Shown one piece after another: positions 60,197 through 60,216 of a stretch of DNA of 64,000 nt (the stretch's first letter is position 1; each line of letters starts with the position of its first letter). The stretch lies in the NCBI RefSeq assembly GCF_050320075.1, contig NZ_CP190018.1, one strand, 5' to 3'. This DNA is from Escherichia coli. GTDB lineage: Bacteria > Pseudomonadota > Gammaproteobacteria > Enterobacterales > Enterobacteriaceae. The notes below the pieces were generated by a model. It saw only the letters and a program-made list of their open reading frames with translations. It did not search any database and had not been told where the DNA came from. A program made the position numbers and the translations under genes.

Positions 60197-60216
60197 GATG
60201 GCATAAGACCTGCATG
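60197..60216 (+). promoter_or_regulatory. sigma-54 (-24/-12) promoter for argT
   Basis: TGGCAT-N5-CTGCA with GG and GC spaced as in the sigma-54 consensus TGGCAC-N5-TTGCA; about 70 bp upstream of argT. Confidence 0.5.

Follow-up and report, generated by a model that had tools for sequence, protein, structure and literature searches.

Among the nitrogen-regulated promoters of Escherichia coli, the archetypal NtrC-activated sigma-54 promoter is glnAp2, in which strong NtrC sites lie roughly 100–140 bp upstream of the start. Its fellows in the Ntr regulon are glnHp2, glnK, nac, astC, and the promoter of argT, argTp. For glnAp2, a published account names two enhancer sites together with three weak ones. 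Both glnAp2 and argTp have the −24 GG and −12 GC doublets, both would hold a closed complex that awaits phosphorylated NtrC (NtrC~P), and both are placed in the Ntr regulon. They differ in their upstream DNA: strong NtrC sites precede glnAp2, but there are none within 340 bp upstream of E. coli argTp, and NtrC ChIP gives a 71-fold signal at glnA compared with 5.4-fold at argT.

A closer counterpart is the argT promoter of Salmonella Typhimurium (argTr; STM2355), the 18-nt core of which, TGGCATAAGACCTGCATG, is identical to that of E. coli. The gene, its ubiX-argT-hisJ context, and the assigned activator, NtrC, are likewise the same, though this is an ortholog in another genus and the flanking spacer diverges, including the region that holds the sigma-70 −10 element in Escherichia. 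In Salmonella, the identical 18-mer was bound in ChIP-chip and the wild type/rpoN ratio was 3.5 in the presence of a constitutive bEBP; argT was also among four operons earlier shown to be sigma-54 dependent, and it is listed as a known NtrC/sigma-54 operon (Samuels 2013). The promoter was thus experimentally "known" in Salmonella, while in 2015 the EcoCyc class of its E. coli equivalent was "predicted", not experimentally confirmed (Bonocora 2015). A further comparison is offered by the neighboring hisJ, a paralogous binding-protein gene with an NtrC-bound upstream region and a sigma-54-like sequence, TGGCACGATAAGTGTA, 48 nt before its ATG, which differs from argTp in that its −12 doublet in Escherichia is GT, not GC.

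Here, we examined a candidate sigma-54 promoter upstream of argT in a window of E. coli DNA, by which we mean the whole 64,000-nt stretch that was analyzed. The evidence leaves us highly confident that the site is argTp, the sigma-54 (RpoN)-dependent, NtrC-activated promoter of argT. This promoter is already known: it has been documented by ChIP-seq, gSELEX, and comparative genomics, and it is already in use as an engineering part.

The argT locus matches that of K-12

Open reading frames and RefSeq annotation gave the local gene order dedD-cvpA-purF-ubiX-argT-hisJ-hisQ-hisM-hisP, with all genes on the plus strand. The argT coding sequence, identified as an open reading frame and by RefSeq annotation of an identical locus, occupies 60283–61065 (+) and encodes a lysine/arginine/ornithine-binding periplasmic protein of 260 amino acids, separated from ubiX by a spacer of 265 bp. 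Positions 59900–61400 were matched by 5,425 of 5,426 complete E. coli genomes, and RefSeq places ubiX, argT, and hisJ there. Across 59990–61300, the window is collinear with MG1655 and carries 16 substitutions: 15 fall within argT, and the other, at 61074, is in the argT-hisJ spacer. Between ubiX and argT there is no difference from MG1655, so experiments performed in K-12 are directly applicable to that spacer. For such comparisons, window position w corresponds to U00096.2 position 2486096 − w.

The 151-bp promoter region was at least 95% identical in 5,414 E. coli genomes. A single genome of the 5,426, that of strain B27 (NZ_AP027424.1; retrieved locus L083, 2169–2570), has a purF-argT interval without an annotated ubiX. 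There, unrelated sequence stands in place of the promoter part TGGCATAAGACCTG, and homology to the window restarts at 60213; either the sigma-54 promoter has been lost naturally in this strain or the replacement is an assembly artifact. Elsewhere, the sole Rfam family match in the whole window was a tRNA gene at 21584–21655 (−).

A sigma-54 core motif lies upstream of argT

The core promoter, TGGCATAAGACCTGCA, occupies 60199–60214 (+) and reads TGGCAT (−24), N5, CTGCA (−12), as established from the sequence, a pattern search, a position weight matrix (PWM), and the motif published from ChIP-seq. The GG doublet at 60200–60201 and the GC doublet at 60212–60213 are 10 nt apart, which is the canonical −24/−12 spacing. 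Relative to the core consensus (TGGCAC-N5-TTGCW-like), TGGCATAAGACCTGCA differs at two degenerate positions, with T for C and C for T. The motif is intergenic, in sense orientation to argT, and 68 nt separate its end from the ATG at 60283. The original prediction had given this same TGGCAT-N5-CTGCA arrangement with correct GG/GC spacing at 60197–60216, an interval that contains the motif, and its estimate of about 70 bp upstream of argT agrees closely with the distance found.

By the rule of Bonocora, in which initiation occurs 19 bp downstream from the center of the motif, sigma-54 transcription is predicted to start at 60225 (± 2 nt, plus strand), giving a 5′ untranslated region of 58 nt. 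We found no mapping of the E. coli argT start site under nitrogen limitation in the literature.

Motif score does not by itself distinguish the site from chance

The degenerate pattern of the original prediction matched once in the window against 0.48 matches expected, and at least one match arose in 37 of 100 shuffles. A stricter consensus with two mismatches allowed gave 14 matches in the window, against 14.45 expected. We also built a PWM from the 41 other intergenic-sense sigma-54 ChIP-seq sites of Bonocora et al. 2015 and scored all positions on both strands, approximately 128,000 in total. The argT site scored 14.85 bits, the second best value in the window and rank 29 of 42 when placed among the validated sites, which span 8.6–21.4 bits. 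In windows simulated from a first-order Markov model, a mean of 1.2 PWM matches scored equal to or better than the argT site.

The top match in the window was CTGGCATACATTATGCA at 8591–8607 (−), with 17.8 bits, inside the 1197-aa open reading frame at 7011–10604 (evgS). This sequence is identical to IS29, a published intragenic sigma-54 ChIP-seq site in evgS (Bonocora 2015). The first- and second-ranked matches, within evgS and upstream of argT, are therefore both published sigma-54 sites, which validates the scan, though motif score alone is still insufficient. By sequence alone, the argT motif is not significant against chance, and our verdict is accordingly not based on these statistics. 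It is position, orientation, and conservation that raise the site above chance.

The promoter core is invariant across Enterobacteriaceae

Conservation was assessed in 80 argT orthologs with 84–99% protein identity, drawn from a scan of Enterobacteriaceae with one genome per species and covering Escherichia, Citrobacter, Salmonella, Enterobacter, Klebsiella, Raoultella, Kosakonia, Pluralibacter, Franconibacter, and others. A sigma-54 motif was found 50–89 nt before the argT ATG in 80 of 80 loci. In every one of these, TGGCA and TGC were 100% invariant and at fixed spacing, within a spacer alignment that had a mean column identity of 63%. The motif occurred as 22 sequence variants, the differences being confined to positions at which the consensus is degenerate. 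A published conservation table places the argT site among the most conserved: 14 of 21 genera retain it, as far out as Yersinia, Serratia, and Dickeya.

The spacer alignments also revealed four blocks upstream of the core, at 60047–60075, 60097–60108, 60119–60131, and 60146–60175 (+), or approximately −180 to −50 from the predicted start, which are conserved across all genera. The first of these contains an invariant GATCA.ATCC, and two conserved copies of TTGCAAC lie 99 bp apart. No match within four mismatches of the NtrC consensus was present in the blocks (60047–60175), and comparison by eye against sites for IHF, ArgR, CRP, Nac, and ArgP gave no convincing match. It is possible that they are weak NtrC sites, IHF sites, or sites for another factor.

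Published binding and expression data converge on the site

In E. coli MG1655, sigma-54 ChIP-seq reported site OS22, "ATGGCATAAGACCTGCA", with argT as the downstream gene, a fold-above-threshold value of 12, and a predicted start 58 nt before argT (Bonocora 2015). The center of this motif, at U00096.2 position 2425890, maps to window position 60206. In gSELEX with the RpoN holoenzyme, a peak of 61% intensity was found in the argT spacer (Shimada 2021). The same study assigned a weak RpoN peak of 31–32% to the cvpA spacer (Shimada 2021); in the corresponding dedD-cvpA region, at about 57000–57310, we found no strong sigma-54 PWM match.

For NtrC, ChIP-seq peak 13 at argT was weak, at 5.4-fold, and was added by visual inspection, and argT was listed as NtrC-regulated by expression analysis (Brown 2014). 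By coordinate mapping, this peak covers 60155–60235 of the window. Control of E. coli argT by sigma-54 and NtrC is also explicitly stated in the literature. The prediction of nitrogen-regulated, NtrC-dependent argT expression is hence supported by published experiments on the exact sequence. In an engineering paper from 2020, an "argTp" reporter gave a stronger signal than any other sigma-54 promoter in the comparison. From its primers, the reporter fragment corresponds to 198 bp at 60027–60224 of the window.

A search of the literature for a link between ArgP and argT returned nothing relevant. One reference, "Upstream sequence activation of E. coli argT promoter", appears to concern the arginine tRNA gene of the same name and was set aside.

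A reported sigma-70 start, a hairpin, and a likely small RNA target surround argTp

A sigma-70 start of argT has been reported with the sigma-54 motif lying at +6 to +22 relative to it (Schaefer 2015, Table S3), which places this start at 60193 of the window. Under conditions in which nitrogen was not limiting, argT expression with rpoN was 23% of that without it (Schaefer 2015). Such a reduction by sigma-54 in nitrogen-replete cells indicates that the site is not purely activating. A candidate for the overlapping sigma-70 promoter can be read at 60159–60187 (+), with a −35 element TTAACA (60159–60164), a 17-nt spacer, and an extended −10 element TGt-TACTGT (60179–60187), from which transcription would start at about 60193. 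A generic scan for sigma-70 promoters and terminators called no sigma-70 promoter in 59900–61400, so the sigma-70 assignment at argT rests on Schaefer 2015 together with our reading of the hexamers. Part of the strong GFP signal from the 198-bp reporter fragment could stem from this sigma-70 promoter.

Downstream of ubiX, a terminator-like hairpin is formed at 60027–60050 (+) by GCCCTG-TTT-CAGGGC followed by AATTTTG, with a folding energy of −15.1 kcal/mol (z = −3.4) and a stem that is conserved across genera. The hairpin proper covers 60027–60046, with UUUU after it. It was not called by a simple terminator scan because its T run is short. The hairpin probably ends the purF-ubiX transcript and insulates argT from read-through, and argT would thus need a promoter of its own.

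Within the argT 5′ untranslated region, the C/A-rich stretch CAAACACACAACACAATACACAACATA at 60227–60253 (+) is the likely target of the R1 seed of the small RNA GcvB, the pairing site being suggested by composition. In the literature, argT is among the R1 targets of GcvB, with verification in Salmonella and conservation in E. coli, and GcvB adds post-transcriptional control of the gene.

NtrC sites are found downstream of argT, and upstream in other genera

In promoters of the Ntr regulon, enhancer sites of the NtrC consensus TGCACCN4TGGTGCA typically precede the start by 100–150 bp. We searched the ubiX-argT spacer for this consensus, and nothing was found within four mismatches. Over the 240 nt upstream, the closest match had five mismatches, the value most often seen in random windows of 240 nt. 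A good site was instead located in the argT-hisJ spacer, approximately 0.9 kb downstream of argTp, where TGCACTATCGTGGTGCA at 61124–61140 (no strand assigned) has one mismatch and is the only site within one mismatch of the NtrC consensus in the 64-kb window. A weaker NtrC-type partner lies at 61095–61111. NtrC ChIP-seq peak 12, which was assigned to hisJQMP, is strong, at 23.7-fold (Brown 2014), and coordinate mapping places TGCACTATCGTGGTGCA inside it. Nearly all of the 80 loci have an NtrC site with at most two mismatches in the argT-hisJ spacer. We regard TGCACTATCGTGGTGCA as a candidate shared enhancer, which may act at argTp.

In many genera, NtrC sites with 0–2 mismatches were found at the ubiX 3′ end or close to it, 250–310 nt ahead of the argT ATG. 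Good sites of this kind are present in most Enterobacter loci and in Klebsiella pneumoniae, some Raoultella, Pluralibacter, Pseudocitrobacter, Trabulsiella, and others, and in Enterobacter the site overlaps the last codons of ubiX. Retrieved loci with such upstream sites include L026, L031, L034, L035, L039, L048, and L060. In Escherichia, Salmonella, and most Citrobacter, the match at the ubiX 3′ end is at background level. The homologous stretch in Escherichia, CCCGCTGGCAGGGCGCA at 59998–60014, has six mismatches, and in Salmonella a GTGCA half-site is all that is present. Salmonella subspecies arizonae and diarizonae resemble E. coli in having no upstream consensus NtrC site and one in the argT-hisJ spacer. 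Given this distribution, with upstream sites in many genera and background matches in Escherichia and Salmonella, the upstream enhancer looks to have been lost in a lineage-specific manner.

The NtrC that serves E. coli argTp may therefore be bound at the downstream cluster or at weak, non-consensus sites within the conserved upstream blocks, or it may act from solution. Activity of the 198-bp reporter, which lacks the downstream NtrC sites, argues against strict dependence on them, a comparison that is confounded by sigma-70 activity.

The hisJ side carries a sigma-70 promoter and a sigma-54-like motif

Between argT and hisJ, RpoD gSELEX identified a sigma-70 promoter of the form TTGAAA-16-TTTAAT, and hisJ is described in the literature as controlled by sigma-70 and ArgR. 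The hexamers lie at 61141–61146 (TTGAAA) and 61163–61168, such that the −35 element directly abuts the NtrC site TGCACTATCGTGGTGCA. The expectation that the argT promoter is separate from that of hisJQMP is borne out by this sigma-70 promoter.

The spacer also holds the sigma-54-like motif ATGGCACGATAAGTGTA at 61221–61237 (+), 48 nt before the hisJ ATG (61286), which scores 12.5 bits and has a −12 doublet of GT rather than GC in Escherichia. The NtrC-type sites lie approximately 115 and 145 nt upstream of the putative hisJ sigma-54 start. Across the 80 loci, the motif position scored at least 14 bits in 29, and the full consensus ATGGCACGATAACTGCA (18.3 bits) is found there in most Citrobacter, Franconibacter, and others. 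Sigma-54 ChIP studies report no peak at this position, and hisJ goes without mention in the text and the supplements covered of the E. coli sigma-54 ChIP-seq paper and in the main text of the Salmonella ChIP-chip paper. The motif looks like a decayed sigma-54 promoter of hisJ that is intact in other genera.

Discussion

Sigma-54 RNA polymerase, the binding of which is documented by published ChIP and gSELEX, contacts the −24 GG (60200) and the −12 GC (60212) and, we propose, waits there as a closed complex. Upon nitrogen limitation, NtrB would phosphorylate NtrC, and NtrC~P would oligomerise on enhancer DNA, reach the closed complex by DNA looping, and open the promoter with ATP hydrolysis. 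These last steps are the established mechanism of the class, and we extend them to argT because its expression is NtrC and rpoN dependent. Transcription is then predicted to begin near 60225 and to yield the 58-nt leader, in which the C/A-rich stretch, a GcvB target according to the literature, would allow translation to be damped when amino acids are plentiful. While NtrC is not active, the sigma-54 holoenzyme at the site also blocks the weak sigma-70 promoter that starts approximately 32 nt upstream, according to published in vitro and RNA-seq data.

That last step could in principle be the main one. The bound holoenzyme would then be chiefly a repressor that occludes the sigma-70 promoter (~60193), with productive sigma-54 transcription being minor. 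Such a role would account for the higher argT reads without sigma-54 (the 23% value being expression with rpoN relative to vector) and for the placement of the motif at +6 to +22 of the sigma-70 start, and in vitro sigma-54 cut sigma-70 initiation by 10–60% (Schaefer 2015). A plausible TTAACA-17-TGtTACTGT promoter is also readable in the sequence. These measurements, however, were made without NtrC activation, while argT induction is NtrC dependent and, in Salmonella with an active enhancer-binding protein, rpoN dependent. Moreover, outside Escherichia there is no conservation of the sigma-70 −10 region, in contrast to a sigma-54 core that is invariant in all 80 loci. Repression is compatible with an NtrC-activated argTp as a second role, not as the only one, and as the principal function of the site we consider it unlikely. 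Far less credible still is that the site is a functionless chance match to the sigma-54 consensus. Although a 64-kb window is expected to hold 0.48 pattern matches and 1.2 PWM matches of equal score by chance, this reading has to contend with binding that published work shows directly, in vivo as well as in vitro, and with a core kept in 80 of 80 loci in a spacer of 63% mean column identity; it is effectively refuted by ChIP, gSELEX, and conservation.

A genuine sigma-54 promoter might also have a different enhancer-binding protein as its activator, or depend on NtrC no more than indirectly. In E. coli, the region upstream of argT lacks a consensus NtrC site, which would fit this, as would the weak, hand-called NtrC ChIP peak at argT and the conserved upstream blocks to which no factor is assigned. 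Against it, the literature consistently assigns NtrC to argT, the strong NtrC sites at 61124–61140 are within looping distance, and most other genera carry NtrC-consensus sites 250–310 nt upstream of the argT ATG. We therefore judge a different or indirect activator to be very improbable, and retain direct NtrC activation of argTp as the explanation of the site.

As the promoter was already documented, the result has value as a calibration, in that a true sigma-54 promoter was picked from raw sequence by a reader without tools. For the wider family, the distribution of NtrC sites allows a speculative scenario, which we advance tentatively and regard as possible rather than probable: in the Escherichia-Salmonella-Citrobacter group, the ancestral enhancer at the ubiX 3′ end may have decayed, leaving argTp dependent on the NtrC cluster of the argT-hisJ spacer, which would formerly have served a sigma-54 promoter of hisJ. 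If true, one enhancer would have been re-used by the upstream paralog, argT.
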